Shown one piece after another: positions 4,048 through 27,169 of a DNA stretch of 64,000 nt (positions within the stretch are counted from its first letter, which is position 1; every line of letters begins with the position of its first letter). The notes under the pieces are model-generated. The model had not been told where the DNA came from. It saw nothing but the letters and a program-made list of their open reading frames with translations, and made no database searches. Origin of the DNA: a bacterium (GTDB lineage: Bacteria > UBA8248). The stretch spans positions 3,456,001 to 3,520,000 of the forward strand of contig OY843592.1 in the NCBI GenBank assembly GCA_963692865.2. The letters are read 5' to 3'. The position numbers and the translations under genes are program-made.

Positions 4048-7000
4048 ATGTCGCAAGCCCTGACGGCGGAGGTGCGTCCGCACGCCGCCCGCTCCACAGC
4101 GCCGAACGCATCCGAGGCGCTCTACGAAGCGGCCCGGGCCCTGCTGCCCGTCCTGGCGGCCGGTCGTCCGCTCGACAAGAACGCGCTGCGCGACGCCATG
4201 ACGGGCGCCTTCAGCGCCACCGACGCCGAGGGCGCCTGGGTCTGGAAGGACGCCTACGAGGCGGCGGAAGCCGCCGTCGTGCTCTTCCTTAAGCGCTACG
4301 GACGGGCCATGCGCCAAAGGGCCGGGGCCGGAGCGGAGGGTCCCTCCGCCATGCTGGCCATGCTGGAAAGACTGGCCGCGCTGGAACCCTCCCACACCAG
4401 GCGCTCGGAAGACCAGGTTCGCCTGCAGCAGTTCTCGACCCCGCTCGGCATCGCCTACGCCGCGGTGCGGGCGGCGGCGCTCCGGACAGGCGACGCCGTT
4501 CTGGAGCCCTCCGCCGGGACCGGGATGCTGGCCGTGATGGCGCAGTGCGCGCTCGGGAACGAGAACTCGCTTCACCTGAACGAGATCGCGAACACGCGCG
4601 CCGGCCTCCTCGCCCGCCTGTTCCCCGGGGCAAGCGTCACCCGCCACGACGCGGAAGCCGTCGCCGACCGCCTCCCGGGAGTCCGGCCGGACGTCGTGCT
4701 CATGAACCCGCCGTTCTCGGCGACGCCGGGCGTCGCCCGGGTACGTCATGACGCGGACCTCCGGCATCTGCGCTCGGCGTTTTCAGCGCTGGCGCCGGGC
4801 GGGCGCCTGGTCGCCGTCACCTCGGCGGGCTGCCTCCCGGGCGATGCGGCTTGGAGAACCGCCTTCTCGTCCGTGGAAGCGCCCGCCCGCATCGTCTTCA
4901 CGACGGCGATCGACGGGCGCGCCTACGCGAGACGGGGCACGACGTTCGACACGCGCCTCACCGTGATCGACAGAAGCAACGAACCCGGTATCGAGGTCGA
5001 CCCCCAGGCCCGCGTGATGGACGCAGCCGAACTGCTCGACGCGGTCACGGCGCGGGTTCCGCCGCGCATGGCGCACGAACCCGCCGCCGGGACGCCAGCG
5101 CCGGACGTCCCGCTCCGCGATCTTTTCGGCGAGCAGGCGGCGCCCGGGACGAAAGCGCGCAAGACCGGGGTGAGGGAGGGCGCGCGGCCGGCGCCCGGGC
5201 CGGCCCGCGACTTAGGCTCCGTCTCGGAGCTCGCATACGAGGCGGCCCCGCCGTGCGGCGAGGACGAGACGGCGGGCCCCTACGCGCCATGGCGGCCGAG
5301 CGTCGCCTCCGTCCCGGGCGCTGTGGCGCATCCCACGCCCCTCGTCCAGTCCGCCGCCATGGCCGCCGTCGCGCACCCCGCGCCCACGCACCGCCCGCTG
5401 CTGCCCGAACGCGTCGTGACCGAGGGGCTGCTCTCCGACGCCCAGCTCGAGAGCGTCGTCCTGGCCGGCGAGGCCCACGGCCGCCATCTCTCCGCCCGCT
5501 ACCGGGTCGGCGCCGGCTGGGAGACGGTCCGCCGCTGCGAGGAGGACGATACCGCTGAGGAGACCGTCACCGAGGACGGCGAAGTCCTATCGGCGCCGGT
5601 CCGGTTCCGCCGCGGCTGGATGCTGGGCGACGGCACCGGGTGCGGCAAGGGACGCCAGGTCGCGGCCGTCATCCTCGACAACCTGCTCCGCGGGCGAAAG
5701 AGGGCGCTCTGGCTCTCGGCCTCGGCCAACCTGCTGGAAGACGCGCGCCGTGACTGGGCCGCGCTGGGGGGGCGCGATGAGGACGTGATCCCCCTGGGCA
5801 ACTTCCGCCAGGGGGCCGGTATCCCGCACGAGAGCGGGATCCTGTTCGCGACCTACGCCACGCTGCGCGCGCCGGCCCGGGAGGGCAAGGCCTCGCGGCT
5901 CGATCAGGTGGTCGCCTGGCTCGCAGGTGGTCTCGACGAGGAAGACCGCCACGGGTATGAGGGCGTGATCGTCTTCGACGAGTCCCACGCCATGGCGAAC
6001 GCGGCGGGGTCGAAGGGATCCCGGGGCGCCGTCAAACCCTCCGCCCAGGGACGGGCGGGACTCAGGCTCCAGCGCGCGCTCCCCGGCGCCCGGGTGCTCT
6101 ACGTCTCGGCCACCGGCGCCACCACCGTGACCGGCCTCGCCTACGCGGGACGCCTGGGGCTCTGGGGCGCGGGCGAGACCCCCTTCGAGAACCGGGAGGA
6201 ATTCGTCGCGGCGATGGAGGCGGGCGGCGTCGCCGCCATGGAGGTGGTCGCCCGCGACTTGAAGGCCCTGGGTCTCTACCAGGCGCGGGCGCTTTCGTAT
6301 AAAGGGATCGAGGTCGACATCCTCGAACACCCGCTGAGTCCCGAGCAGCGGCGCATCTACGACGCCTACGCCGGCGCCTTCAAGGTCATCCACGCCAACC
6401 TGCACGACGCCCTCGAGGCCACCGGCATCATGCAGGGCGAGGAGACCCTGAACCGTAACGCGAAATCCGCCGCGCTCTCCGCCTTCGAGGGCGCCAAGCA
6501 GCGCTTCTTCGGCCACCTCCTGACCTCCATGAAGTGTCCCTCGCTCATCCGCGCCGTGGAGAGCGACCTGGAAGCCAGCCGCTCGGCCGTGATCCAGCTC
6601 GTCTCCACGGGCGAGGCCCTGATGGAACGGCGAATCGCGGAGATCCCGCCCGCCGAATGGGACGACCTCTCGATCGACTTGACGCCGAGGGAATACGTGC
6701 TCGACTTCCTCGCCCACGCCTTCCCGGTGCAGTTGCAGGAGCCCTTCACCGACGAGGAGGGGAACCTCATGAGCCGGCCCGCCGTCGACGGGGATGGGAA
6801 CCCCGTCCTCTCGCAGGAGGCCCTGGCAAAGCGAGATGCGCTCATTGCGAAGCTGGCGTCGCTGCCGCCCGTGCCCGCGGCGCTGGATCAGATCGTGCAC
6901 CGCTTCGGCCACGACGCCGTGGCCGAGGTGACGGGCCGCTCCCGGAGGGTGCTCCGGGTCGAGGACGCCCAAGGTGAGCGGCTCGCCTTGCGCCCGCGAC

Positions 7001-8487
7001 CGGCCTCGGCCTCACTCGCCGAGACGGCGGCCTTCATGGACGGCGAGAAGCGGATCCTGGTCTTCTCGATGGCCGGGGGCACGGGGCGCAGCTACCACGC
7101 CGATCTCTCCGCCGCCAACACGCAGCGCCGGGTCCACTACCTGCTGGAGCCCGGCTGGCGGGCGGATATGGCGATACAGGGCCTGGGTCGCACCCACAGG
7201 ACGCACCAGGCTTCGGCCCCTCTGTTCCGGCCCGTTACCACCGACGTGAAGGGCGAGCGGCGCTTCATCGCCACCATCGCGCGGAGGCTCGATTCCCTGG
7301 GCGCCATCACCCGGGGCCAGCGCGACTCGCAGACCGCCATGGCCGGGAGCGAGGCCACGCTCTTCCGCGCCGCCGACAATCTCGAGAGCCCTTACGCCCG
7401 CGCTGCGCTGCGCCTGCTGTACGGGGCGCTCTGGCGAGGCGGGGTCCCCGGCTGGCCGCTGGAGCGTTTCGAGGAGGCGACCGGCTTGAAACTCACCTAC
7501 GAGGGAGCGCTCAAGGAGGACCTCCCTCCCATGCCGAGGTTCCTGAACCGCCTGCTCGCGCTTCCCATCGACGAGCAGAACGCGCTGTTCGCCGAACTCG
7601 AATCCCGCGTCGAGTCCAACATCGAGGCGGCCGTCGAGGCGGGGACGTACGAGGTCGGCGTCGAGACCCTGATCGCCGACTCGCTCACGGCCACAGGCCG
7701 CGAGACGCTCTACACCCACCCAGGTACCGGAGCTGCGACAGGCCTCGTCGAGGTCCTCCGCCGCGACCGGCTCGTGCCGACGACGGCCGAGGCCGCGCTC
7801 GATGCGGCCGCGAAGGCCGGCGCGCCTGCGCTCCTCGTCAACGCGCGCTCGAAACGCGCGGCCGTCCTCCTATCCGCGCCCTCGATGCTGTTCGACGACG
7901 GGGGCGTGCAGGAACGCGTAAGGCTCCTGAGACCCGCCGTCCGCGAGGGAATGGCTAGGGCCGAACTCGATGCCTCGAACTGGCGCGAGGCCGAAGAGTC
8001 CGAGTGGCGCGCCCTGTGGGAGGCCGAAGTCGCCGGCCTGCCGTCGCACACCGAATCGCGCTTCTGGCTCGTGACGGGGCTCCTCCTGCCGGTCTGGGAC
8101 CGGCTGGGGGCCGAGAACATGCGGGTGCGGCGCCTCGCCACCGACGAGGGAGAGGCGATGATCGGACGCGCCTTGGACGCTGGCGGCGTCCGGGCCGTGC
8201 GCGCCGCCTTCGGGCTCGACGGGGGGCCGTCTCTCGGCGCGGATGAGGCCTTCGACGCCGTCATGGGACGCGGCGAGGTGCTGCTCCTCGCGAACGGCTG
8301 GCGCCTCGCGCGCCGCCGCGTCATGGGGGCGCAGCGCCTGGAGATCGAAGGCCCCGACGACCGCCGGCTCACGGCCCTCAAGCGCGCGGGCTGCACGGTC
8401 GAGATCGTCTCCTGGAGAGCGCGCGTCTTCGCGCCCGACGCCTCCGTTCTCGCCCGCGTTCTCGAAGACCGCCCTCTCGCGGACTGA
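4048..8487 (+). CDS. Class I SAM methyltransferase fused to Strawberry-notch-family SF2 helicase
   Basis: QQFSTP, LEPSAGTG, NPPF methyltransferase motifs; GDGTGCGKG Walker A, DESH, SATGA, QGLGRTHRT helicase motifs; 1479 aa. Confidence 0.9.
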   Translation: MSQALTAEVRPHAARSTAPNASEALYEAARALLPVLAAGRPLDKNALRDAMTGAFSATDAEGAWVWKDAYEAAEAAVVLFLKRYGRAMRQRAGAGAEGPSAMLAMLERLAALEPSHTRRSEDQVRLQQFSTPLGIAYAAVRAAALRTGDAVLEPSAGTGMLAVMAQCALGNENSLHLNEIANTRAGLLARLFPGASVTRHDAEAVADRLPGVRPDVVLMNPPFSATPGVARVRHDADLRHLRSAFSALAPGGRLVAVTSAGCLPGDAAWRTAFSSVEAPARIVFTTAIDGRAYARRGTTFDTRLTVIDRSNEPGIEVDPQARVMDAAELLDAVTARVPPRMAHEPAAGTPAPDVPLRDLFGEQAAPGTKARKTGVREGARPAPGPARDLGSVSELAYEAAPPCGEDETAGPYAPWRPSVASVPGAVAHPTPLVQSAAMAAVAHPAPTHRPLLPERVVTEGLLSDAQLESVVLAGEAHGRHLSARYRVGAGWETVRRCEEDDTAEETVTEDGEVLSAPVRFRRGWMLGDGTGCGKGRQVAAVILDNLLRGRKRALWLSASANLLEDARRDWAALGGRDEDVIPLGNFRQGAGIPHESGILFATYATLRAPAREGKASRLDQVVAWLAGGLDEEDRHGYEGVIVFDESHAMANAAGSKGSRGAVKPSAQGRAGLRLQRALPGARVLYVSATGATTVTGLAYAGRLGLWGAGETPFENREEFVAAMEAGGVAAMEVVARDLKALGLYQARALSYKGIEVDILEHPLSPEQRRIYDAYAGAFKVIHANLHDALEATGIMQGEETLNRNAKSAALSAFEGAKQRFFGHLLTSMKCPSLIRAVESDLEASRSAVIQLVSTGEALMERRIAEIPPAEWDDLSIDLTPREYVLDFLAHAFPVQLQEPFTDEEGNLMSRPAVDGDGNPVLSQEALAKRDALIAKLASLPPVPAALDQIVHRFGHDAVAEVTGRSRRVLRVEDAQGERLALRPRPASASLAETAAFMDGEKRILVFSMAGGTGRSYHADLSAANTQRRVHYLLEPGWRADMAIQGLGRTHRTHQASAPLFRPVTTDVKGERRFIATIARRLDSLGAITRGQRDSQTAMAGSEATLFRAADNLESPYARAALRLLYGALWRGGVPGWPLERFEEATGLKLTYEGALKEDLPPMPRFLNRLLALPIDEQNALFAELESRVESNIEAAVEAGTYEVGVETLIADSLTATGRETLYTHPGTGAATGLVEVLRRDRLVPTTAEAALDAAAKAGAPALLVNARSKRAAVLLSAPSMLFDDGGVQERVRLLRPAVREGMARAELDASNWREAEESEWRALWEAEVAGLPSHTESRFWLVTGLLLPVWDRLGAENMRVRRLATDEGEAMIGRALDAGGVRAVRAAFGLDGGPSLGADEAFDAVMGRGEVLLLANGWRLARRRVMGAQRLEIEGPDDRRLTALKRAGCTVEIVSWRARVFAPDASVLARVLEDRPLAD

Positions 8488-13930: not shown

Positions 13931-14063
13931 CGCTGGATTCCGGCATCGATTCGAGACCTTCCCAGTTCGCGACGAGTGTATTCGGCACAAAGAAAACCGG
14001 AATTTTCCGATCGTTTTGGATCGGAATCGATGAAAACCCTCACAAAAAGGAGCGGCAAAACGA

Positions 14064-14462: not shown

Positions 14463-15344
14463 CTACCTTAAACCGGAAACTTTAACGGCTCCTAGAGCAT
14501 GATCATGCTTTCGACCAGATTCGAATCCCGTAAATCCTGGACGACGCAAGGTATTTCTTGTCGGATCATAATAAACACTCACAATTCCAGTAATAAGAAA
14601 TTGAAGTGCTAAATGTTCTTCGTTCTTACCATAGGTATGCCCAACGAACTTGGCTTCTTCAGGTGTACTTTTGGGTTCAGGGCGCTTTTTAAAGACGCTT
14701 CCACAATTGTTTATTACTCCGATAAACCCGATAACTTCGTCAAAGAGAGGTGCCGGAGAAGTAGGATATGCTGATGAAACCTTCTTGAAAACTGTTTTGG
14801 GCATATTCCTGGTGGAGTAGTTTTTCTGATAATCCATTCCGATGATCGCCAGATACGGACCACGCCTCGATTGCCCCTTGACATCAAGGCTCCTGCAAAG
14901 CTCCGCCGCTTTCCGGAGCGATTTGCACTCCGCATCGATATCCTTTGGTCGTAAAGTTTTCTTAACAGAAACTATGCCTACTACGCTTTCAGGTGGCACA
15001 ATCACGGCATCGACGAAGCGTTGAAAAACCGGATAACGAGCAGAATCGTACACGATGATATCTAGTTGGGTTGAATGTTCGTCTCGGTGACTTTTACGCT
15101 CCCGTCCATTTACACCGGTCTTCACAGCAGGACGAAGAATAAACCCCGAACTTACGGCCAAATCACCAGGCAGGAATTTATCTAAACAAGCCCGAACAAG
15201 CGACTCAACAAATCGACCATCCTCGCCGGGATGCCCAGCACCTTTTTGGTTTTGGGCGGGCACGAGCGTCTCGAATTGCCGATATGTAGCAAGCAGAGCA
15301 TTCACCTCTCGGGATAAATGTCCTCGAACTCTCACTCCATCCAC
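14463..15344 (-). CDS. DUF6602-like PD-(D/E)XK nuclease-fold protein
   Basis: 'HPGEDGRFVESLVR...FLP...SSGFI...STQLDIIVYD...VPPESVVGIVSVKK'; GAAGGAG RBS before GTG 15344. Confidence 0.65.
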   Translation of the reverse strand: MDGVRVRGHLSREVNALLATYRQFETLVPAQNQKGAGHPGEDGRFVESLVRACLDKFLPGDLAVSSGFILRPAVKTGVNGRERKSHRDEHSTQLDIIVYDSARYPVFQRFVDAVIVPPESVVGIVSVKKTLRPKDIDAECKSLRKAAELCRSLDVKGQSRRGPYLAIIGMDYQKNYSTRNMPKTVFKKVSSAYPTSPAPLFDEVIGFIGVINNCGSVFKKRPEPKSTPEEAKFVGHTYGKNEEHLALQFLITGIVSVYYDPTRNTLRRPGFTGFESGRKHDHALGAVKVSGLR

Positions 15345-15774
15345 CTGAATCTCCTTCTTCCCAGCCAATTTAAATGATGGGCAGACCCAGCCCTGAGTGA
15401 GCTGACAATTCTTCCATTTTTCCAGGGCCGTTTTAGCATATGGGAACCACTCTGCCGAGGTTTACAGATACAGGGCAAGATTCTGCGAAGTCTCAATTGT
15501 AAGTGGCCAGACATTAGTTAAACAGTTCGCTTTCGCCATAACAACTAAAAACGTGCAAACAAAACCCCCAGCATTTCTCGCCTGAAAAACCACTTAAAAA
15601 TACAGCGCATTTTAATCAGGTGTCGTTCTATGCGGAAGGGCGATCTTGATGAGGCGTTTGGTGGTCAATTGTTTCCCTAAAAGTTAGGACCAAGCATACG
15701 GTAAGACGTAATTAGGTATCCAAATAGGCCAAGAGGTGCATAACCTAGATTATAAAATCATCCATTCACGATAA

Positions 15775-16926
15775 TCACTGCGAAGCGTTTGCAGATATAT
15801 GCAAGGCATCAAATTGCGCCATCTCCCAAGCTTGATAGTCTTCCGTTGCTCGCCAAAATTCTTGCCAAGCGGAATTGAGAAGACTGGTGATAGGATTTAA
15901 CGCATCCGGTTTTGCTGTTACCAAACCGGCTCCCACGATACCTTCCTGTGCCGCCGTAACGATTTTGGACAGCAGATGATCCGGGTAAGCTTGACGATAT
16001 TCAGCCATTGGACGGTAGCCCATAACCCCAACAAAATCCTGCCAAGCCTGTTCAATCAGCTTCATTTCCGTATCGAAGCCGGTTATCGCCAGCATCATTA
16101 GCACCGTGCGCATTCTTGCATCATCTGCCGGGTGAGTTGACACGGACACTATAGGTGTTTCAAAGGGGTTGCCGCCACGTTTGACGCAAAGGTGATAGTG
16201 CGACCAAACAAATGCTGGGCCCACCATCAGCACGCCGAACAGGTCACAGAAAAATTCTTGCATCCAGAATTTGTCCCAACAAGTGCGCCATAGCTGAAGT
16301 TGGTAGAAAATACCCTCCGGCTTCCGCACACGTTCGGCAGATATGATTTCATTGCGGAAATGCCTTACCATTTCGAACCGGCTTCGCTTGTAGGCTGCAT
16401 GATACGATTCAAGCTTCGGAAGATTGGAATTTTGTTTCTGATGAAATGGATGACAGAGTTCGTGATAAATATCGGGAAGGTGAAGGAAGAACCGGCTCTC
16501 CATCAACGGTAAGCAAAGGAGATTGAATTCTCGATAGATATGAAAATAGTTTTGAGATGTATGGCTGACGACTGGAGGAATCAGGGGATAGTTGATTTCA
16601 CTGCAGATATTCGTGATCAAGCAGTTGAGAAAGTCATCATCTTGACTCACTCTGCTGAGGGCGTAAGCTCCAATGTTTTCAACAGTTTCGATTTGTTCCA
16701 CAATACGTTTGAACCCTCTCACTCGTAGAGGAGATTGAAGCGTTATATCGACTACTGTCTCCTGAGCGAGGTGCTGAAGAGCTGCCTGTGCAGCGTCGAG
16801 ACGAGTCAAACAAATTTGTCGCAAGCCGTCATATTCGCGGCGATATGGTTCTTGTACGATTTGTCGCAGTTGTCGTATCCGCTCCAGGGATTGTCCGATC
16901 GAGCCAATGAGATAGGTTTCGATCAT
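15775..16926 (-). CDS. Soluble HExxH zinc metallopeptidase (gluzincin; M48/Lit-like motif order)
   Basis: HELCH, downstream EFFCD, then THP; TGATG overlap with upstream gene; 383 aa. Confidence 0.65.
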   Translation of the reverse strand: MIETYLIGSIGQSLERIRQLRQIVQEPYRREYDGLRQICLTRLDAAQAALQHLAQETVVDITLQSPLRVRGFKRIVEQIETVENIGAYALSRVSQDDDFLNCLITNICSEINYPLIPPVVSHTSQNYFHIYREFNLLCLPLMESRFFLHLPDIYHELCHPFHQKQNSNLPKLESYHAAYKRSRFEMVRHFRNEIISAERVRKPEGIFYQLQLWRTCWDKFWMQEFFCDLFGVLMVGPAFVWSHYHLCVKRGGNPFETPIVSVSTHPADDARMRTVLMMLAITGFDTEMKLIEQAWQDFVGVMGYRPMAEYRQAYPDHLLSKIVTAAQEGIVGAGLVTAKPDALNPITSLLNSAWQEFWRATEDYQAWEMAQFDALHISANASQ

Positions 16927-17291
16927 CAACGCCTCCAGAGTCGGCGGGCAACCTTCACTCGTTCCTGTTCTAATCCTTGGGCGAGTTCCTCAAGCTGATG
17001 TATGTACGCTTGGTCCACCTCACCGTTCCGAAGTCGTTCACCTAGTTGTTTCAAGTTAGCTAAAGACTCACCCGTACTTGTCCTAAGCAGACTGTCTAGA
17101 GTTAATGCTTCGAGGCACTGAGACTTTAGCCCTTGATCACTCGCGTCGATAAAAAGCTGAGCCAGTTTCTTCTGATCCGGATCGGTCGGATCGGCCTCTC
17201 CCCGTCCCAGCCGTTCAATTACTCTGTCTATCAGAGCGCCGTATTCCTCGACATCGGCGTATACGCCAGTCAGTAAACTCAAATCGCTCAT
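16926..17291 (-). CDS. Small predicted all-helical hypothetical protein (121 aa)
   Basis: ATGA overlap with pAgo stop; CAGGAG RBS; Leu/Glu/Gln-rich. Confidence 0.75.
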   Translation of the reverse strand: MSDLSLLTGVYADVEEYGALIDRVIERLGRGEADPTDPDQKKLAQLFIDASDQGLKSQCLEALTLDSLLRTSTGESLANLKQLGERLRNGEVDQAYIHQLEELAQGLEQERVKVARRLWRR

Positions 17292-19666
17292 ATTGTGCTC
17301 TCCTGATGTTTGTCGTCGGGTTCAAATTCGATGGCGTCTTGATCGTATTCCACGGCTTCATCGAACAGGCTGCGATCGCAAAGTTTGACCGAAATTGGTA
17401 GACGCATCGCACCTTCCGGCCGGGTCCAAGTCAGACAACTGAGTGAAAAAACATCTGATAGGCATTGTTCCATCGACATAGCGCCAGCCGCCCGGCGGAT
17501 ATGTAGAGGGTTGGATGTGCCTGGAATTTGGAAGGGACGCCCAGTGGTGCAGACGTAGCCTTCGTTTGGAGCGGTAAGTGTCCAATGACCGACCATCGGA
17601 TTTTCGACCCAGAGCCCTTGCCCGTTTCTTGATGGTTTCACATCGAATAGCCGAAGCGGCACAGGTGCGGACTTGGATATCTCGACAACCGTGAGGTGCC
17701 AATCCTTTTCGAGATAACCGTCTTTTGCAAGACGTTCGCATGCCTCATTGAGACCTTCGACTTCCGCCGGCCAAGCGCGTCCATCTCGATGGACGACAAT
17801 CTGTTTCGGGCGTCGCTTGAAATTGGGTCCTTCCTTACACATGAGATCAATCACGAATTTTTCAACTTGGGTTTTAAGTAATTGCTCCTTCTGACGCGAT
17901 GGGCTCATGGTAAATCTGATAATCTTTCCACCATCGGCAATCAGAGTGAAGGCTGCGGTGTTATTCTTGACGTCAATCCCGATCACCACCTCCGCATATA
18001 ATGGTTTATCCAGGATGAACGGCCATTTCCCATTGGTGAGTAGAATCTTATTGAGCGCGACATTGCGTAGATAACCGGAGAAACGCTTGCGCTGGGTATC
18101 CTTTACGACGTAACGAGTCTCGCCCTTTCGCGTCACGCTCGTGTAGGTTTTCTTTGCCATATCCGTGTGGATTACAGCTGCGTTGAGTCCGAACTGAAGT
18201 GGAAACTCCTTCACCGTCCATGCTGCCAATTGATCGGCCGACCTTGGGCGACGCTCATAGCGGTGTACCATCACAAGCGCATATCCCGGTTTGACGTGGG
18301 TTGCGCATTCTACAGCCTTTTGAATCGCACGGGACTGTCCAACAAAATCCCGGCGATGATTGAGGTCGTCATAAGGAATCACTATAGGATCGTAGCTCCC
18401 GCCTTTGGGATAGAGGTCATCCACGTGCGATTTGAGGTCCATGAGAAACTGTGAACCATAGCTATTCATAACACTCTTGGGCAGCACGAGATATTGCCGA
18501 TCAAGGAGACTCTGCTCAAAAAACCCCGCATCTTTATCTTTCAAGAGACTCAATCTTCTTCGTCCATAATCTTTGAAGGCAACCGGCGCAATGCGCTGGT
18601 TCTTTTCAAACGACAGTGTCACGTCGTTGCCGAACCGCAGGGCGGGCAAAGAGAACGGCTTCGTTCTTGTCCGCCCCATCCGATCCGAAACCGAGAGAGT
18701 GACGTCACCGACCGGCACCTGACTTAGAAACATTTTAACGAGGCGCTTAATCTGACGGTGTCGACTATTGGGATCGATAACGGTCTTGGATTGATACTTA
18801 GCTCCCTCTTGGCCATGTGTGTCTTCAACTAGATAGCAAAGCTCTGCCGGGGCTGATCGTTGCTCCGGCCCATTGGTTCTATAGTAAATTGCGGCACCGT
18901 CCGGTGAGAGGTTCGCAATCGAGGCCGGCACGGGTTTCGGAGACTTTGTTTGCAGATAGTCCATCAAACTGACTGGTTTTCCTTCAAGTGGAATCGAAGG
19001 TTCGTTGACCCTCATATCAGCGAGCCCGGTGAGAGTGACCTCGAACCAACTATGACCCATTTTGTAGACGCATGAGCGGCCTTTTAGTTTGTTGATCTGT
19101 TCGCGCGTAGAGGAAACTGGGAGCGGCGATCTTGAGACAAGTTTCCGGCGAAGATCGACGTTGAGTCCGAACCCACCTTCCGGGTGTGTCATGACGCGTA
19201 TGGCGAAGCCCCCATAGAGGTCGACTACGCCGAATTGTTGCTCCGGTTTCTTGAAGAAAAATGGCTTACCTGCACCGGGCTGCCAGAGGCGCGAATCCTG
19301 AAAGAGCGGATCCTGAAAGATGAACTGGAGAAAACGCAGTCGAACAGGATCAAGTTCCGAGCGGTCTGGGCTGAAATCAAGCTCGACTTCATTTCCAGTG
19401 TCTTTTAATGAGGCGACGGTACCAACAAGCATGACATGATCTGGGGGGTCTCCGTAACCGGTTGGAACGACCAAAAGGGTCTCGCCCTCTATGTCCTGGG
19501 TCGTAACCGGCGCTTTCATGTTAAAGCTCAACCGGCGGACAAGCCGTTGCACATTACTATAGTATTCTGGAGTATCTCGTTGTAGACCAGCGATCTTGTA
19601 CAGTCGATATGTGGTACTTAATGCGTTTAAGCCGTCAATACGAAAGCAATTCGTTTCAATGGGCAT
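17288..19666 (-). CDS. Long prokaryotic Argonaute (N-PAZ-MID-PIWI), putatively catalytically active
   Basis: PIWI motifs VIGIDV, KEQL, IVVHRDG, VEISKS, GTSNPL, LPISVKLCD; 792 aa from ATG 19666 with GGGAGGAG RBS. Confidence 0.9.
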   Translation of the reverse strand: MPIETNCFRIDGLNALSTTYRLYKIAGLQRDTPEYYSNVQRLVRRLSFNMKAPVTTQDIEGETLLVVPTGYGDPPDHVMLVGTVASLKDTGNEVELDFSPDRSELDPVRLRFLQFIFQDPLFQDSRLWQPGAGKPFFFKKPEQQFGVVDLYGGFAIRVMTHPEGGFGLNVDLRRKLVSRSPLPVSSTREQINKLKGRSCVYKMGHSWFEVTLTGLADMRVNEPSIPLEGKPVSLMDYLQTKSPKPVPASIANLSPDGAAIYYRTNGPEQRSAPAELCYLVEDTHGQEGAKYQSKTVIDPNSRHRQIKRLVKMFLSQVPVGDVTLSVSDRMGRTRTKPFSLPALRFGNDVTLSFEKNQRIAPVAFKDYGRRRLSLLKDKDAGFFEQSLLDRQYLVLPKSVMNSYGSQFLMDLKSHVDDLYPKGGSYDPIVIPYDDLNHRRDFVGQSRAIQKAVECATHVKPGYALVMVHRYERRPRSADQLAAWTVKEFPLQFGLNAAVIHTDMAKKTYTSVTRKGETRYVVKDTQRKRFSGYLRNVALNKILLTNGKWPFILDKPLYAEVVIGIDVKNNTAAFTLIADGGKIIRFTMSPSRQKEQLLKTQVEKFVIDLMCKEGPNFKRRPKQIVVHRDGRAWPAEVEGLNEACERLAKDGYLEKDWHLTVVEISKSAPVPLRLFDVKPSRNGQGLWVENPMVGHWTLTAPNEGYVCTTGRPFQIPGTSNPLHIRRAAGAMSMEQCLSDVFSLSCLTWTRPEGAMRLPISVKLCDRSLFDEAVEYDQDAIEFEPDDKHQESTI

Positions 19667-20956: not shown

Positions 20957-21000
20957 AATGCTAAATATATTTATTGTTGCTAAATTTGTCAAGCAAATTT
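20957..21000 (-). promoter_or_regulatory. Sigma70 promoter of the Argonaute operon, probably leaderless, with operator-like repeats
   Basis: TTGACA(20992-20987)-17 bp-TATATT(20969-20964)-7 nt-ATG; AAATTTG-N5-CAAATTT palindrome over -35; TTTAGCA twice. Confidence 0.7.
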
Positions 21001-21403: not shown

Positions 21404-21439
21404 TTGCGCAAAGGATTTAAAAATGATACTTTATGCGCA
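21404..21439 (+). promoter_or_regulatory. Promoter of abiE operon with TGCGCA boxes
   Basis: TTGCGC-17 bp-TACTTT-6 nt-ATG; TGCGCA at 21405 and 21434. Confidence 0.45.
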
Positions 21440-22242
21440 TGAAAATAAAATCACATCGCCTACATGCCAAAGATTATATCAGAGACCTTCTTGCTGCCGG
21501 GCGCTATCATTTTACTTCGAGTGACGCTCGCAAGGCGCTTGGCGTGTCTGCGGACGCCGCCAAACTTGCTCTGAACCGCCTAGCCCGGCAGAATATAATC
21601 GCTCAGCCCGCCCGGGGTTTCTACGTCATTGTCCCGCCAGAATACCGCTCTCTGGAATGTCTGCCTGCGGATCAGTTCATCCCCGCATTGATGCAGCGGC
21701 TCGGGCAGCCCTACTATTCCGGGTTGCTTTCCGCCGCACAATACTACGGTGCGGCTCATCATCGACCGCAGGAATTCCAGGTGTTGCTCGTTAAGGCACG
21801 CCGGCCGATCCATTGCGGCCGGGTGCGCGTGATCTTCATCGTCCGCAAGCGCCTCTGGAATGTCTCCGTGCAAACCTTCAACACCCCTCGCGGCACGATC
21901 CGGGTCTCTACACCGGAAGCAACGGCCGTGGACCTCGTCGGCTATTACCACCACGTGGGTGGGCTCGACCAGGTGGCGACCATCCTCTCCGAACTTGAAG
22001 AGCAGATCGATCCGGAAAAATTGGTGACGGCCGCGCAGAACGCGCCGATTACGTGGGCGCAGAGGCTTGGATACCTGCTTGAGCTTGTCAATGCCCACGA
22101 ACAGATCGTTCCTCTGAAAGCCTATGTCAAGAATGAAGCCCGGCGAACGGTTCCGCTTTTCCCAGCTACATCATCCGAAGAAGCGCCTCGCGATGCGAAC
22201 TGGAAACTTTTCATCAACGCCGACGTGGAGCCGGACCTATGA
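21433..22242 (+). CDS. abiEi: Type IV toxin-antitoxin AbiEi antitoxin
   Basis: 'RGFYVIVPPEY', 'YYSGLLSAAQYYGAAHHRPQEFQV', 'STPEATAVDL'; start may be 21439. Confidence 0.85.
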   Translation: MRMKIKSHRLHAKDYIRDLLAAGRYHFTSSDARKALGVSADAAKLALNRLARQNIIAQPARGFYVIVPPEYRSLECLPADQFIPALMQRLGQPYYSGLLSAAQYYGAAHHRPQEFQVLLVKARRPIHCGRVRVIFIVRKRLWNVSVQTFNTPRGTIRVSTPEATAVDLVGYYHHVGGLDQVATILSELEEQIDPEKLVTAAQNAPITWAQRLGYLLELVNAHEQIVPLKAYVKNEARRTVPLFPATSSEEAPRDANWKLFINADVEPDL

Positions 22243-23060
22243 TCCCGCGCGACTATATCACTGAGTGGAGGGCGCAGGTGCCGTGGGTGCAGGATTTCCA
22301 GGTCGAGCAGGATCTCGTCATCAGCCGGGCGTTGATTGCGATTTTCAATCACCCGCTCCTCAAAGAAGTGCTGGCCTTCCGAGGCGGTACGGCGCTTTAC
22401 AAACTCCACATTCATCCTCCGGCACGCTATTCGGAGGACATCGACCTTGTACAGCTCAGGGCCGAGCCAGCCGGGCCGATGATGAACGCGGTTCGGGAAG
22501 TGCTCGATCCCTGGCTTGGGAAACCGCAATACAAACAGACCGAAGGACGAGTGACCTTCAGTTATCGCTTCCAATCCGAGGATGTGCCGCCTCTTCAACT
22601 CCGACTGAAAGTGGAAATCAATTCGCGGGAACACTTTGCGGTCTACGGATACACGCGCCTGCCGTTCACAGTCTCTTCACGCTGGTTCGAGGGTAGTAGC
22701 GAGATCGCTACTTACGCGCTTGAGGAGTTGCTAGCCACCAAACTCCGCGCCCTCTATCAACGTCGTAAAGGCCGCGACCTTTTTGACCTTGCGGTCGCAC
22801 TTGAGGAATCGGTGATCGATCCGGATCGGGTCATTTTAGCGTTTTCGAAATATATGGAGCGAGGTGGTCACGACGTGACGCGCGCCCGGTTTGAGCAGAA
22901 CATCGAAGCGAAGCTGCGCGACCCACAGTTCAATGCCGATATCGGCCCGCTTCTCGCCACCGGGTTTTCCTGGGACGGCGAAGAGGCTGCGGCAACCGTC
23001 CGTTCCAGACTTATCGCGCGATTGCCAGGCGAGCCATGGAAGGGCGGCAACAGGGCCTAG
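22239..23060 (+). CDS. abiEii: AbiEii nucleotidyltransferase toxin
   Basis: 'QVEQDL', 'FRGGTAL', 'RYSEDIDL', 'KLRALYQRRKGRDLFDL'; ATGA overlap. Confidence 0.9.
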   Translation: MIPRDYITEWRAQVPWVQDFQVEQDLVISRALIAIFNHPLLKEVLAFRGGTALYKLHIHPPARYSEDIDLVQLRAEPAGPMMNAVREVLDPWLGKPQYKQTEGRVTFSYRFQSEDVPPLQLRLKVEINSREHFAVYGYTRLPFTVSSRWFEGSSEIATYALEELLATKLRALYQRRKGRDLFDLAVALEESVIDPDRVILAFSKYMERGGHDVTRARFEQNIEAKLRDPQFNADIGPLLATGFSWDGEEAAATVRSRLIARLPGEPWKGGNRA

Positions 23061-23347: not shown

Positions 23348-24451
23348 TCACTTGATGCTGATGAATCTGGCAAACGACCGATCACTCTGTTCGTATCGTG
23401 AGAGCGGTAACAACTGCTTGGGTCTAAAATCGGAAAGCCATTGAAACAGAAGACAGTGGCTCACTATCATAAGTTTTAGTGACACTTTCCAATGTGGTGC
23501 AAGTTTAGAGTTCATCATTACAGAAGAGTTTGCGCTGAGCGGCATGACCACTCTTTTGGCAGTCAAGGCCCTTACGGGATAGAGCAGGATCAGGATGTTG
23601 TAGGTCGTATCAAACGCTTCAGCGATACACTCGTGCTGCTCGCCGTTCATGTCGGCAATCGGGAGTAAAACGGGTTTTGTCATTTTGCGGCCAATTGGAA
23701 GCACCTGCCATAGAAAATGATCTGGTGTGACTACATCGATAGAAGGTCGCCCGAATTGAGCAAGAAAAGCGGGCGAGGGTTCAATTCGTCGCACAGGCGC
23801 CTGGAACCCGGAACCTTTAATTTTTTCCAGCGGTTCAAGAACAAAAACGACGCACGCTCTCTGGTTGGTTCGGGCAAATTCGCGAGTGGAGGCATAAACC
23901 GAAGCCCCGAATGTCTTGGCGAGTTTGATCGGTGTCTTGATCTCGAATGGACAATCGGCGGCGTATTCGGCAAAGGTGCTGCCTTTGAATAGCACAAACC
24001 GCGCATAGTTGTTGGCTTCACGCTCAAATTGGTCGGCGACCTCGGGCTCTAGAGTCCTTTTGCAGTCCTGGAAGAATTGAAACATCTTGCGATGGGTCGG
24101 CATATCGTGGTGCCCGGTTTCATGGAGCTTGAGAAAGGTCTGTTTTGATTCGACCACGGAATTATCGATATGGATGGCGGCATCACCGGCATCGTAAAGT
24201 CCGAATACCTTGGTTATCGCCGACTTGATACGAACACTCGTGTCGACAGTCTTGGTTTTAAGGTAAGAGAGTAAGGCTACGGGGTCGAAAATGTTAGTGG
24301 GAACAATATGGACCTTTGCCGCGGCAAGAATATCGTCGATCGGGACTGGGAACCGATCCCAGGCTTCCGCGCGGTCGAGAAGTTGTCGGGCTCGCCCCTC
24401 GACCACGCGTAGATCATCCGGGTCGAGAGCGCTGTCATCTGGTTTTGTCAC
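23348..24451 (-). CDS. capP: ImmA/IrrE-family metallopeptidase, CapP-like
   Basis: 'TFLKLHETGH', 'FEREANNYA'; GGAGG RBS before GTG 24451; overlaps the HTH gene. Confidence 0.8.
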   Translation of the reverse strand: MTKPDDSALDPDDLRVVEGRARQLLDRAEAWDRFPVPIDDILAAAKVHIVPTNIFDPVALLSYLKTKTVDTSVRIKSAITKVFGLYDAGDAAIHIDNSVVESKQTFLKLHETGHHDMPTHRKMFQFFQDCKRTLEPEVADQFEREANNYARFVLFKGSTFAEYAADCPFEIKTPIKLAKTFGASVYASTREFARTNQRACVVFVLEPLEKIKGSGFQAPVRRIEPSPAFLAQFGRPSIDVVTPDHFLWQVLPIGRKMTKPVLLPIADMNGEQHECIAEAFDTTYNILILLYPVRALTAKRVVMPLSANSSVMMNSKLAPHWKVSLKLMIVSHCLLFQWLSDFRPKQLLPLSRYEQSDRSFARFISIK

Positions 24452-24803
24452 GTCTCCGCCTCCTGCTACGTAAGAACTCAAGGTACTCCAGCAACTCGGA
24501 TTCCTCCTCCGGCGTCAAATTGTACTCGGCGAATGTTGCCATCCGGCCGTGTGGGTCATCGTTTGAACGTTTGGCTGACGACATGAGATAGCCGGCCCTG
24601 TCCATGAGGTTCTCGAAGCTGACGGCGTAGGTCTCGGCCAGGGTATGAAGGATGTTGGGCGAGGGTTTTTGGATTTTGTTGTTTTCGATTTGGCTGAGAT
24701 AGGCGTTCGATACCTGCTTGTTGGTTGCTTCCTCGACTTCGCGCAGTGTCATTTTGCGATCTGTACGAATTGAAGCGAGGTATTGTCCTAATGTCAGCTT
24801 CAC
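24435..24803 (-). CDS. capH: XRE-family HTH repressor, CapH-like
   Basis: 'MTLREVEEAT...SNAYLSQIENNKIQKPSP...EEESELLEYLEFLR'; GTG 24803 with GGAGGG RBS (alternative ATG 24818); divergent from the Ubl operon. Confidence 0.8.
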   Translation of the reverse strand: MKLTLGQYLASIRTDRKMTLREVEEATNKQVSNAYLSQIENNKIQKPSPNILHTLAETYAVSFENLMDRAGYLMSSAKRSNDDPHGRMATFAEYNLTPEEESELLEYLEFLRSRRRRRDKTR

Positions 24804-24866
24804 GATGATCCCCTCCATTGCAGGACGGTCAAAGATTCAATCTCCGGAGATGAGCTTGTAGTTAGA

Positions 24867-24946
24867 ATTCTAGTTCCGATTGCTGTCATGGTCAAGCGTG
24901 CTCAATTTATGCTTGACATAAATAGTATGCTATGAAATAATAGCAT
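24867..24946. promoter_or_regulatory. Divergent sigma70 promoters with palindromic operators
   Basis: Minus: TTGACC-17-TAGAAT (24895-24867). Plus: TTGACA(24913)-17-AATAAT(24936). Palindromes ATTTATG-N5-CATAAAT and ATGCTAT-N6-ATAGCAT. Confidence 0.7.
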
Positions 24947-24994
24947 CACTCTTGGGCCATGGTGGCGCAGAGATTTTCTGTTTAGGAGAAAACT

Positions 24995-25351
24995 ATGGAA
25001 ATATCGGAAAAACCTGAACTGGTGCAGGACGAGATCGATGAGTCAGGCGTGGAAATTGTCCTTGATGACATTATCGACCTCGAGGAATACGCGAAGCTTG
25101 GGAAACGCCCACCGCTGGCGAAGGGTTATCGCATCAAAATCAATGGTGACTCCTATGTCGTCCACGATCCGACGCCGACGGGCCGTGAGGTGCTGACCCT
25201 CGCCGGTTTGTTACCGGCGAAAGATTATACGCTCCGGGTTAAGCTCGCTGGTGAAAAGCCGAGGAAGGTGGAGCTTGACGAAAAGGTTGATCTCCGTCAC
25301 CGAGGCGTCGAAAAATTCAAGGCGTTGCCGCGAGATCAGACGGAAGGTTAA
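24995..25351 (+). CDS. Ubiquitin-like (multi-ubiquitin domain) protein ending in Gly
   Basis: 'YRIKING...TGREVLTLAG...VDL...GVEKF...QTEG*' beta-grasp pattern; AGGAG RBS. Confidence 0.8.
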   Translation: MEISEKPELVQDEIDESGVEIVLDDIIDLEEYAKLGKRPPLAKGYRIKINGDSYVVHDPTPTGREVLTLAGLLPAKDYTLRVKLAGEKPRKVELDEKVDLRHRGVEKFKALPRDQTEG

Positions 25352-25355
25352 TGCA

Positions 25356-25757
25356 TTGGTCCTTCGTCATCAGTTCGACTTGTTACCGCAAGACGAAGAG
25401 TTCCTGAAGGAGTACGGCCACCCCTGGGAGACCATCATCGATGGCTCCCAATGGGTGCTGATCCACGAGTTCCCAACCCACGAAGGGTACAATCACCCAT
25501 GTGTGACGGCGGCAATCCGAATGGAAACGGGATATCCGAACACGGAATTGCAAATGGTCTACTTCTTCCCGGCCTTGGCCCGCAAAGATGCCAAGATGAT
25601 CGGCGCAACCCAGGCTACGCAGACGATTGACGGGAAGAAATATCAACGCTGGTCGCGTCACCGTACTCCAGAAAATCCGTGGAGAGTCGGTCTCGACTTT
25701 TTGGACACGCATGTCATTCTGATTGAGGATTGGCTCGCACGGGAGTTTGAGAAATGA
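25356..25757 (+). CDS. Prokaryotic E2/UBC-like protein
   Basis: 'GYPNTELQMVYFFPAL', 'YQRWSRH...W'; TTG start after GGAAGG. Confidence 0.75.
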   Translation: MVLRHQFDLLPQDEEFLKEYGHPWETIIDGSQWVLIHEFPTHEGYNHPCVTAAIRMETGYPNTELQMVYFFPALARKDAKMIGATQATQTIDGKKYQRWSRHRTPENPWRVGLDFLDTHVILIEDWLAREFEK

Positions 25758-27169
25758 CCGTACCGATAAACCTTTCATTTTCAGGTGATCAGCATGAGCA
25801 TCTTAGAAGCTTCCTGTTTCCGGGCGACGGAAAGGAAGCCGTTGCTCTTCTCTTATGTGGCCGCCGCGCGGGTGATCGACGTGAGCGCCTCGTCGTCCGA
25901 GAGGTCCATGACATACCCTATGATTTATGCTCTGAACGCACTGCCACGCTCGTAACTTGGCCACCTGATTATATTGCGCCGCTACTCGATCGGGCGGCCG
26001 ATAAAGGCTTTTCAGTAATCAAAGTGCACAGTCACCCGAGCGGTTACTCTGCATTTTCTGCGACCGATGATGAAAGCGATGCTCGTCTGCTGCCGATATT
26101 CCGGGGCTGGGTCGAAGCGGATATTGCGCATGGCAGCGCTGTTATGCTTCCCGACGGGAAAATGTTCGGGCGCGTACTTCGTTCTGGCACTTCACTGGAG
26201 CAGATCAGCTGTATCAGCGTCGCAGGCGATGATCTTCATTTCTGGTACGCAGACACGGATAATGTGGAAGCACCAAGCTTCGTCGCTTCTCATGCGCAGA
26301 TCTTCGGCGAGGGCACGATTGAGCGGCTGCAACGTTTGTCGATAGCAGTCATTGGTGCTTCGGGCACCGGCAGTCCAGTTATCGAGCAATTGATTCGGTT
26401 GGGCGTAGGGGAGCTCGTAATTGTCGACGACGACCACATGGAAGACCGTAATGTCAATCGTATTTTGAATTCTACTGTGAAGGATGCGGCAGAAAAACGA
26501 CTCAAGGTCGACGTTCAGACGGACGCGATTGAACGGGCAGGTCTGAAGACCCGGGTGATCCAGATAGACCGAAATCTCTGGAATCCCGATGTCATTCGTG
26601 CCGTAGCGCAATGCGACGTTCTGTTCGGATGCATGGACAGCATTGATGGGCGTTTTTTGTTGAACACTCTGGCTACGCATTACACTTTGCCATACTTCGA
26701 TATTGGAGTAAGACTCCAAGCAGTACCGTTCGGGCCGGACATGGGACGTATTCGCGAGGTTTGCGGCACGGTCAACTATCTACGTCCGGGGAGGTCGAGC
26801 TTAATAAGTCGAGGCCTCTTCACGATAAGCGAAGTGGCTGCCGCGGGCTTGCGGCGCAACGATCCAGATGCGCACGATCAACAGGTGAAGGACGGTTACA
26901 TCGCAGGAGTAGCCGTACAACGCCCCGCAGTGATCAGTGTCAATATGTTCGGCGCTTCTCTCGCGGTCAATGAGTTTCTGGCGCGGCTTCACCCGTTTCG
27001 GGAGGAACAAAATCACAACTACGCCGCTGTTACGTTCAGTCTCGCGAGTATGGAATTGATCCCGGACCCGGAGGAAGGCATCTGCGAGATCATGGCTAAG
27101 AATGTAGGAAGGGGTGACGTTAAGCCACTTCTCGGGTTGCTGGAGCTGGCGGAAAGGCATGGAGCGTGA
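25754..27169 (+). CDS. JAB/MPN peptidase - ThiF/E1 fusion
   Basis: JAB: KEAV...VHSHP...S..D; E1: IGASGTGS, DDDHMEDRNVNR, GCMDS. Confidence 0.85.
   Translation: MTVPINLSFSGDQHEHLRSFLFPGDGKEAVALLLCGRRAGDRRERLVVREVHDIPYDLCSERTATLVTWPPDYIAPLLDRAADKGFSVIKVHSHPSGYSAFSATDDESDARLLPIFRGWVEADIAHGSAVMLPDGKMFGRVLRSGTSLEQISCISVAGDDLHFWYADTDNVEAPSFVASHAQIFGEGTIERLQRLSIAVIGASGTGSPVIEQLIRLGVGELVIVDDDHMEDRNVNRILNSTVKDAAEKRLKVDVQTDAIERAGLKTRVIQIDRNLWNPDVIRAVAQCDVLFGCMDSIDGRFLLNTLATHYTLPYFDIGVRLQAVPFGPDMGRIREVCGTVNYLRPGRSSLISRGLFTISEVAAAGLRRNDPDAHDQQVKDGYIAGVAVQRPAVISVNMFGASLAVNEFLARLHPFREEQNHNYAAVTFSLASMELIPDPEEGICEIMAKNVGRGDVKPLLGLLELAERHGA

Follow-up and report, generated by a model that had tools for sequence, protein, structure and literature searches.

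A candidate latent metallopeptidase and its small partner in the operons of PliAgo-type Argonautes

Introduction

Among prokaryotic Argonautes (pAgos), those of the PliAgo type are, to our knowledge, the only programmable nucleases in which a DNA guide is employed strictly against RNA, and their development as RNA tools is under way. The text of the paper that describes them (Lisitskaya et al. 2022, PMC9360449) presents PliAgo, RslAgo, PnyAgo and HpeAgo as DNA-guided nucleases that cleave RNA, reports that PliAgo slices RNA alone in vitro, and places a PD-(D/E)XK nuclease upstream of the pAgo together with either a helix-turn-helix (HTH) regulator, in the PliAgo group, or a sigma-70 factor, in the PnyAgo group. 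The natural function of these pAgos is an open question according to its authors. Two further genes, which lie downstream of the pAgo gene, are not named in that text, and may be drawn in its figures and supplement (Fig. 1b, Supplementary Fig. 1). The present account concerns these two genes as they occur in a window of 64,000 nucleotides (nt), comprising positions 3,456,001 to 3,520,000 of contig OY843592.1 (assembly GCA_963692865.2), from a bacterium of the GTDB lineage UBA8248. Here they encode a protein of 121 amino acids (aa), referred to as the partner, and a 383-aa protein with the motifs of a zinc metallopeptidase, referred to as the zincin. Both are placed in the conserved core of the two pAgo groups, as a protease-like enzyme and a partner that is predicted to plug its cleft, a finding that makes the cellular role of these Argonautes and of their five-gene operons experimentally addressable.

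The closest parallels to such an arrangement are found elsewhere in prokaryotic immunity, where Craspase (TPR-CHAT/Csx29-Csx30), CalpL-CalpT-CalpS, SAVED-CHAT and SAVED-peptidase form the protease arms of CRISPR and CBASS systems. As with Craspase and CalpL, the present locus encodes a nucleic-acid-sensing module together with a protease, here proposed to be latent, and a small partner; similarly, a sigma factor is found in one pAgo group, like CalpS and RpoE in those protease systems. Unlike in Craspase, CalpL and the SAVED systems, the sensor would be an Argonaute rather than a CRISPR or cyclic-nucleotide receptor, and the protease would be an M48-like zincin. The conserved operon suggests cooperation between PliAgo-type Argonautes and a latent protease, and the whole chain of events proposed below, in which the zincin and its partner constitute a latent Argonaute-coupled protease, is given a probability of about 45%. 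Should it hold, Argonaute immunity would gain a protease output, hitherto known as a principle of CRISPR type III and CBASS, and a new family of gluzincins, kept latent in an unusual way, would be defined.

The pAgo neighbours in the accessible text of Ryazansky et al. 2018 are nucleases, helicases and DNA-binding proteins, with no peptidase among those given there, and the long-B pAgos in that of Song et al. 2023 have a downstream effector that is a nuclease, a SIR2 or a membrane protein. No paper naming the two genes, or a pAgo-linked protease, was found in the open full-text literature, a scope that leaves subscription journals, figures and supplements outside. Thus pAgo systems with co-encoded partners are known, whereas a putative protease with a predicted plug partner beside an apparently active RNA-slicing pAgo seems not to be.

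The operon and its conserved core

The operon consists of five tightly packed genes on the minus strand, in the order XRE regulator, nuclease, pAgo, partner and zincin (Table 1). The pAgo matches the PADLOC model pAgo_II with an E-value of 0 and the PliAgo structures with E-values of about 1e-210 (1.9e-210 to 7r8k). Its GIDVK motif, a glutamate, HRDGR and KLCD align with D563/K565, E592, D626 and D762 of PliAgo, the catalytic residues and group lysine given in the text of Lisitskaya et al. 2022 (PMC9360449), so that the DEDD tetrad is intact and the group-specific lysine of GIDVK is present. Judged by these residues the protein would belong to the PliAgo group, of the DNA-guided RNA-cleaving type, and is a predicted slicer. 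Both genes that mark the operons of the PliAgo group, those for a PD-(D/E)XK nuclease and an HTH regulator, stand ahead of it in the window. The regulator matches PADLOC capH (4.4e-05) and is 47% identical over 74 residues to the product of a neighbouring capH-like gene. From their junctions, the nuclease, pAgo, partner and zincin genes appear to be translated as a coupled unit.

The constancy of this arrangement was assessed in 38 related loci, obtained from one genome scan (a single-protein query, 2 loci) and one metagenome scan. In each of the 30 loci that extend more than 450 nt beyond the start of the zincin gene, tblastn finds a pAgo as its direct upstream neighbour, a count that excludes the most distant zincin members (22-25% identity) and fused relatives; the remaining eight have too little upstream DNA for the pAgo to be judged. 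An intact open reading frame (ORF) of 118-122 aa is found between pAgo and zincin in 29 of the 30, mostly overlapping the zincin start. This figure includes six loci where tblastn missed the small ORF, and the remaining locus (L022) has a fragment only. The Cas4-like nuclease gene is present in 15/15 loci long enough to show it, 13 of which also have an XRE gene (two as a 26-residue fragment only); of the other two, L025 leaves no room for one, and in L024 the position directly upstream of the nuclease is taken by a ThiF-JAB gene. Downstream of the zincin no gene is conserved, save between near-identical contigs.

Plasmids extend the picture. The search gave five matching records, three of which were examined. 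Runella slithyformis pRUNSL03, the source of RslAgo, encodes an HTH protein, a nuclease, the pAgo, a 125-aa protein and a 378-aa protein, the same five genes as in the window, and the operon of the window opens with an HTH regulator and a PD-(D/E)XK nuclease, in keeping with what the text of PMC9360449 describes for the PliAgo group. Emticicia pEMTOL01 encodes a sigma-70 factor, a 180-aa protein, a nuclease, a pAgo, a 128-aa protein and a 382-aa zincin; its pAgo has GIDVH, with the histidine of the PnyAgo type, its small protein opens MSETTYLMKDY, and its zincin has HEKGH, EEFLCD and HPADEAR. Finally, a cyanobacterial plasmid has genes for a nuclease, a pAgo, a 145-aa and a 381-aa protein, with no regulator annotated, in a PLSDB annotation that is incomplete. 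The DEDD tetrad is retained in 17/17 zincin-linked pAgos. As read from gene order, the nuclease, the pAgo, the small protein and the zincin make up the conserved core, and the regulator is interchangeable; the zincin and the small protein would then belong to the core of both the PliAgo-type and the sigma-70 (PnyAgo-type) operons. It is very probable that the pair acts in the same pathway as the pAgo. The Argonaute setting that an earlier note, made from the window's sequence alone, had proposed for the two genes is a strict link, and a preference of the pair for non-defence contexts, which that note regarded as telling against its proposal, was not seen, with the pAgo upstream in each of the 30 loci.

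This linkage bears on the question of whether the two genes are simply a free-standing toxin-antitoxin or addiction pair that travels with a pAgo island. A gene for a small acidic protein upstream of, and overlapping, that for a putative enzyme is what such a pair would look like, and the low-GC island around it holds other toxin-antitoxin and abortive-infection (Abi) genes. However, the pair never occurs without the pAgo in the 30 loci and the three plasmid records, the ATG of the partner overlaps the pAgo stop, and among 51 genomes of the window's phylum the zincin occurs in one, inside this operon. An addiction pair is accordingly very unlikely.

The interchangeable regulator bears on a different account, also raised by the earlier note, in which the zincin is a protease that cleaves a regulator. 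Zincins that cleave repressors are familiar from CapP/CapH, ImmA/ImmR and BlaR1/BlaI (families M56 and M78), where the protease gene adjoins that of the regulator. At the present locus a stress or infection signal would cause the zincin to cut the XRE protein, or an anti-sigma-like partner, turning the operon on, with the 121-aa protein acting as the gate. The first gene of the operon does encode a CapH-like XRE protein, XRE is seen in 13/15 of the loci long enough for the Cas4-like gene, the 180-aa protein that follows the sigma factor in the sigma-70-type operon could be an anti-sigma, and BlaR1 is among the fold matches of the zincin (Z 4.9, see below). Yet it is the pair that is constant and the regulator that varies, being XRE, sigma-70 with the 180-aa protein, none annotated, or ThiF-JAB in L024. 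The zincin gene, moreover, comes last in the operon, coupled to the pAgo and separated from XRE by three genes, and the family shows no M78 signature (3/63 members, best E 0.084). The proposal that the zincin cleaves the operon's own XRE is weakened by the retention of the pair alongside each of these other regulator arrangements, and regulator cleavage as a whole is considered unlikely.

A few copies of the operon appear damaged. In L001 (5555-6491) the pAgo is broken into two parts separated by about 0.9 kb, in L006 (5957-5964) there is a frame change in the pAgo, and in L034 (3044-4129) the zincin gene is split by an insert of about 1.1 kb.

The zincin gene, its motifs and their conservation

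In the ORF list the zincin appears as a 384-aa ORF (15775..16929, minus strand) that opens at TTG 16929. The codon immediately after this is ATG 16926, which is preceded by GGAGG. The sequence at the junction with the 121-aa ORF is GGAGGCGTTGATG, in which the zincin ATG and the stop of the 121-aa ORF share one base (TGATG) and the Shine-Dalgarno sequence lies inside the 121-aa ORF. The product is therefore taken to be the 383 residues from ATG 16926, on the basis of the GGAGG/TGATG junction and of homologues that open MIE.. at their N-terminus. Residue numbers in the alignments, fold models and predicted complex follow the 384-aa numbering, which is the 383-aa numbering plus one. In the AlphaFold model three helices form a bundle at the N-terminus (residues 1-94), which is followed by the catalytic domain (residues 95-383). 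No hydrophobic stretch is present, the highest Kyte-Doolittle mean over 19 residues being 1.41, and hence nothing in the protein resembles a signal peptide or a membrane helix. By its sequence, the zincin would be a cytosolic protein.

The word-indexed search gave 340 zincin homologues. Among the matches listed (120 of the 340), identities range from 54 to 100%, and neither a Pfam domain nor an informative name is attached to any of them. The exhaustive profile search extended the family to 916 cluster representatives at E<=1e-3, with 256 at E<=1e-30. Residues H156, E157, H160, E225, D229, H266, P267 and R272 are invariant in 63/63 aligned members, which are 22-63% identical, as are E84 and G237; in a second alignment the catalytic-type set is likewise invariant (71/71). 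With the H, E, H, E, D, H and R kept down to 22% identity, a decayed enzyme is not expected. Viral contigs yielded no relatives.

Several features that had been read from the ORF beforehand are borne out by these data. The HELCH, EFFCD and THP motifs are at residues 155-159, 224-228 and 264-266 in the 383-aa numbering, the helical N-terminus of about 100 aa corresponds to the three-helix bundle of the model, and the apparent lack of a signal peptide agrees with hydropathy means that never exceed 1.41. The 121-aa ORF is directly upstream and coupled through the TGATG overlap, and the HExxH motif, loss of which in homologues the earlier note had named as a sign against a protease, is invariant in both alignments.

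Fold and family placement

The model of the whole protein, with a predicted local distance difference test score (pLDDT) of 86.7, has the bundle at residues 1-94, a small sheet at 120-141 and helices at 153-163 and 205-236. The HExxH motif sits on the first of these helices and E225 and D229 on the second. The catalytic domain (residues 95-384) was folded alone, with 71 sequences, because the bundle dominated the results when the whole model was used for fold searches: VIA-align found only helical bundles, matching the N-terminal 94 residues. Folded alone the domain reaches a pLDDT of 96.9, and HELCH is on a helix in both models. When the domain was compared by VIA-align with 48,161 chains, the top 18 rows were zinc metallopeptidases, M13, M48 and minigluzincins among them, with Z of 7.5-4.6, values under 8, at which, according to the tool, a match may mean no more than a common arrangement. 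Zmp1 is the best match (Z 7.5, root-mean-square deviation 4.5, 180 aligned), followed by BepA (7.4), PepO (7.4), neprilysin (7.4), ZMPSTE24 (7.1) and ECE-1 (6.8), with the M48-like 3c37 (6.6), Ste24p (6.3), BlaR1 (4.9) and M1 aminopeptidases further down. The minigluzincins abylysin (5.3), jannalysin and selecase have Z of 5.3-4.7, and lower rows include thermolysin, ArdC (4.2), PprI (4.1) and SPRTN. The argument for a zincin fold is that the leading rows all belong to a single superfamily, and does not depend on any one score. In addition, H156/H160 and E225 contact the same partner residues, 5-6, in the predicted complex described below, which would place them together. A profile search of PDB sequences with a zincin alignment (A2) gave coiled-coil noise only, and Foldseek found nothing at E<=0.001 in the viral BFVD.

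To which family does such a protein belong? The M48 peptidases (Ste24/ZMPSTE24, HtpX, BepA, Oma1) and M56 (BlaR1) have the same order of motifs, HExxH, ExxxD and (S/T)HPxxxxR, in register with those of the zincin. When the zincin family was aligned by hhalign with 14 M48 ORFs from related genomes, the probability was 36.7% (E 3.6e-4, 159 columns), with HELCH opposite HEvaH, EFFCD opposite ElEAD and STHPADDARM opposite STHPaDetRI. Against 28 more diverse M48 ORFs it was 59.4% (E 9e-5) over 55 columns covering the ExxxD..HPxxxxR half, and the controls gave 0.1% for a reversed alignment and <=0.2% for ten column shuffles. Conversely, the zincin matches no Pfam family at E<=0.1, including M48 (PF01435), U49 (PF10463) and M78 (PF06114), and has no match in NCBIfam or PADLOC, capP included. 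Among the 63 members there are sub-threshold Pfam matches to M78 in three (best E 0.084), to M48 in one (E 0.0076) and to M50 in one. A PF10463 search of 21 genomes found nothing, but carries little weight as the controls also gave nothing. In a language-model atlas the top clusters are unnamed (0.96) and U49/M48 clusters score 0.79, which is a lead only. As the motifs are in register with M48 and yet the Pfam models of M48, U49 and M78 fail, the zincin would represent a new gluzincin family, distantly M48-like and outside M48, U49 (Lit) and M78.

Further differences set the zincin apart from M48 and from Lit. Unlike the M48 peptidases, the zincin has no PF01435 match, no membrane helices and no signal peptide, and it has an extra N-terminal three-helix bundle, a dedicated small partner and an Argonaute operon around it. 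Lit (U49) is an abortive-infection protease of the Escherichia coli prophage e14, which cleaves elongation factor Tu (EF-Tu) and is latent until a peptide or protein signal arrives. Like Lit, the zincin is an HExxH protein in a defence setting for which latency is proposed; unlike Lit, it has no PF10463 match, and nothing at the locus points to EF-Tu.

That the 383-aa protein is a metallopeptidase is highly likely, though the activity is a prediction. The earlier description of it as gluzincin-like holds in view of the invariant motifs, the zincin fold matches and the three motifs in M48 register. The motif order it ascribed to M48 and Lit peptidases stands as regards the register with M48, whereas membership is not supported by the Pfam models of either family. 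The fold search it had suggested was divided, in that Foldseek gave nothing at E<=0.001 and VIA-align put zinc metallopeptidases in its top rows.

The fold matches also allow a reading in which a zincin fold serves a non-proteolytic role, as a scaffold or a nucleic-acid-binding adaptor for the pAgo. The activity is predicted only, and the zincin-like DNA-binding proteins ArdC and PprI are found among the rows (Z 4.2 and 4.1). The whole catalytic-type residue set, however, is invariant down to 22% identity, and such a role is most unlikely.

Fused relatives

Some relatives of the zincin are fused at their C-terminus to further domains (P0125, P0147, P0148 and P0390-P0396). In P0125 (609 aa) the extension is a CHAT domain (Pfam 4.3e-09, PADLOC chat 3e-14, SAVED_CHAT 1.9e-11), and P0147 (632 aa) has a sub-threshold CHAT match of 21.1 bits against a cut-off of 24. 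Forms of about 800 aa, comprising seven 90% clusters of 783-801 aa and P0148, carry a second HExxH domain, which matches the peptidase part of the PADLOC CBASS effector model SAVED_peptidaseM48 (4e-19, 5e-14 and 8.8e-12). The zincin of the window has no match to the PADLOC CHAT or SAVED_peptidaseM48 models. By their domain content the fusions would tie the zincin family to defence outputs.

The partner and the predicted complex

At the junction with the pAgo gene, the partner's start codon and the pAgo stop are interleaved in ATGA, behind a Shine-Dalgarno sequence (AGGAG). The partner has 195 homologues. In orthologues from related loci, where identity falls to 20-30%, M1, S2, Y11, D22, L87, L100 and A104 are kept, and the N-terminal peptide is conserved as MS..S/G..G.Y, with a small residue at position 5 and a mostly hydrophobic one at position 6. 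No family was found for it in Pfam, NCBIfam, PADLOC or the atlas, the last giving no usable match; a weak match to DUF2017 (E 0.015), under the cut-off, was set aside.

Prediction of a complex between zincin and partner was successful, with a median ipSAE of 0.72 (runs of 0.55, 0.72 and 0.78) and three controls all at 0.00. The value of 0.72 is reached by 116/157 solved complexes and 2/215 mismatched pairs, calibration counts that are only approximate here because author-made alignments were used for both chains. At least 92% of contacts are common to the runs, and the partner has a pLDDT of at least 82. Two interfaces are predicted. In the first, a clamp, the partner helices 12-30, 53-75 and 101-119 would pack on helix 61-85 of the zincin, with the invariant D22 of the partner facing zincin residues 68/71/72; R71 is invariant in the 22 closer zincin homologues (A1), and the interface also includes A104, likewise invariant, and the nearly invariant E101 of the partner. 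In the second, the plug, residues 1-10 of the partner would occupy the catalytic cleft, where they contact zincin residues 127-134, 153, 156-157, 160, 224-225 and 228, and residues 5-6 would contact E157, H160, E225, C228 and the edge strand 127-134. Binding of the 121-aa protein by the zincin is judged likely.

The predicted placement of the peptide would suit a pseudosubstrate plug and a bound substrate alike. The earlier suggestion of a toxin/inhibitor or protease/substrate pair thus gains support as to the pairing, with the partner N-terminus placed in the catalytic cleft, and both of its versions are retained. Among protein inhibitors of metalloproteases, the TIMPs and the serralysin inhibitors Inh/APRin act as N-terminal plugs. 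As in these, an N-terminal segment of the partner would occupy the catalytic cleft with the body of the protein beside it; unlike these, the partner is all-helical, cytosolic and encoded with its protease, and shows no sequence similarity to the searched families.

A substrate in the cleft could also mean that the zincin is a maturation or housekeeping protease, which makes the active complex by a single trimming of the 121-aa protein, the pAgo or the nuclease and has no part in signalling or killing. This fits with the occupant of the predicted cleft being the partner N-terminus, whose residues 5-6 come nearest the catalytic residues, with the small position 5 and mostly hydrophobic position 6 of the orthologues, and with strict co-inheritance with the pAgo. 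Against it, recombinant PliAgo, RslAgo, PnyAgo and HpeAgo are active without these proteins, according to the text of PMC9360449, a dedicated 383-aa protease with a clamp partner would be a costly way of removing a few residues, and the CHAT and CBASS-type peptidase fusions point to an output role. A maturation role is regarded as distinctly unlikely. As a possible true cleavage site, a copy of the partner's N-terminal motif, L..[LIV][ST]..Y, was sought in the other operon proteins, and one is present in the N-terminus of the pAgo and one in the XRE protein, besides that of the partner; this lead was dropped, the motif being short, post hoc and absent from divergent orthologues.

A proposed mechanism

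How might a latent protease be coupled to an Argonaute? Gene linkage and motifs are observed in the DNA, and on this footing the nuclease, the pAgo, the small protein and the zincin would be made as a translationally coupled unit. In the predicted fold and complex, the partner helices would clamp the third helix of the N-terminal bundle of the zincin while the partner N-terminal peptide threads the catalytic cleft beside H156, E157, H160 and E225. This peptide may act as a pseudosubstrate plug or be the first substrate, and in either case would keep the protease latent. We infer that a pAgo-linked signal, which may be guide loading or the binding of target RNA during invasion, displaces or cleaves the plug. 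The freed protease would then cut a protein target, either a host or invader protein, with growth arrest as the result, or a regulator, as a transcriptional switch. In this way the zincin would add a protease arm to RNA slicing.

A wider form of the proposal is possible but doubtful. In it, an immune system that signals through a protease would have the PliAgo- and PnyAgo-group pAgos as its sensor half, and recognition of invader RNA by the pAgo would cause release or cleavage of the plug. The M48-like protease would in that case, tentatively and by analogy with Craspase and CalpL, cut a host, invader or regulatory protein, and some lineages might, with no greater assurance, pass the output to fused CHAT or CBASS-type peptidase domains.

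A number of observations weigh against the latent, Argonaute-coupled protease. As a catalytically intact RNA slicer, the pAgo requires no effector, unlike inactive pAgos. The structural support is wholly predicted, and the calibration of the complex score is approximate, given the alignments used. With regard to the fold, Foldseek against the PDB returned nothing at E<=0.001 with either the whole model or the catalytic domain, and every zincin match of VIA-align has a Z of 7.5 or less, under the flagged level of 8. With regard to the family, the hhalign probabilities are only moderate, and a PF01435 search of the organism's own genome matched two other genes and not the zincin. Finally, given the fusions to effector proteases, the zincin could be a module that regulates or acts upstream, and not the terminal effector.

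Feature annotation and genomic surroundings

The coordinates of the operon and of neighbouring features are collected in Table 1. The TTG at 20992 with which the ORF list starts the XRE gene belongs to the -35 hexamer of the promoter-like site, which ends 7 nt short of the XRE ATG, and the operon mRNA may be leaderless. The promoter is a consensus match only, with six such sites in the region against 6.7 expected.

Table 1 Features of the pAgo operon and its surroundings in the window
Feature	Position	Strand	Basis or remark
1479-aa ORF	4048-8487		in the high-GC flank
DUF6602/NucC-like PD-DExK protein	14463-15368	minus	Pfam 1.6e-19; PADLOC NucC-type effector 7.5e-10
Predicted M48-like gluzincin (zincin), 383 aa	15775..16926	minus	ATG start; homologues, motifs, fold models
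HPADDAR, HPxxxxR motif	16114..16134	minus	residues 265-271 (383-aa numbering), preceded by T at 264 (THPADDAR)
EFFCD, ExxxD motif	16243..16257	minus	residues 224-228; Glu is the putative third zinc ligand
HELCH, HExxH zinc-binding/catalytic motif	16450..16464	minus	residues 155-159
Acidic helical partner, 121 aa, pI 4.8	16926..17291	minus	homologues, complex prediction
PliAgo-group long pAgo	17288..19666	minus	probable start Met28 of the listed 819-aa ORF (to 19747)
Cas4-like PD-(D/E)XK nuclease, 313 aa	19656..20597	minus	PADLOC Aga_Cas4-like_Nuc 2.9e-124; Pfam PDDEXK_1
XRE/CapH-like HTH regulator, 119 aa	20597..20956	minus	probable ATG start 20956
Sigma-70-like promoter, TTGACA-17-TATATT	20964..20992	minus	11/12 consensus matches
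AbiEi/AbiEii toxin-antitoxin pair	21433-23060		Pfam 2.3e-51, 5.6e-38
capH/capP-like pair (XRE and M78-like protease)	23348-27169		PADLOC capP 1.1e-11

Between positions 14000 and 28000 the window has a GC content of about 47-53%, inside DNA of 63-73% GC. This low-GC stretch of 14 kb, together with the presence of the zincin in one of 51 genomes of the phylum, indicates that the operon was horizontally acquired, as part of a defence island.

The DUF6602/NucC-like gene shares the strand of the zincin gene and is found 400 nt downstream of it. Considered as a part of the system, it had no match in any related locus, and is placed outside the system, as no downstream gene is conserved. On the other side of the operon, at a distance of 2.4 kb, there is a capH/capP-like pair, which adjoins a multiubiquitin / Prok-E2_E / ThiF-JAB operon, and between the pair and the pAgo operon lie the AbiEi/AbiEii genes; in L024, too, an AbiEii-like gene comes after the zincin.

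Ubiquitin-like systems are found at pAgo operons elsewhere (L013:207-3875, L024:2708-4252 and L054:8285-10464). The metagenome contig L013 has the same layout as the window, with capH-capP immediately upstream of XRE, in L024 the ThiF-JAB gene is 52 nt upstream of the nuclease gene, and in the Runella plasmid multiubiquitin/ThiF/DUF6527 genes begin 313 nt downstream of the zincin. Such a neighbour is thus seen four times in the dozen or so loci whose flanks are long, which could reflect either the clustering of defence islands or a functional link. In the high-GC flank of the window, the 1479-aa ORF reads like a methyltransferase-helicase fusion of a kind typical of mobile elements.

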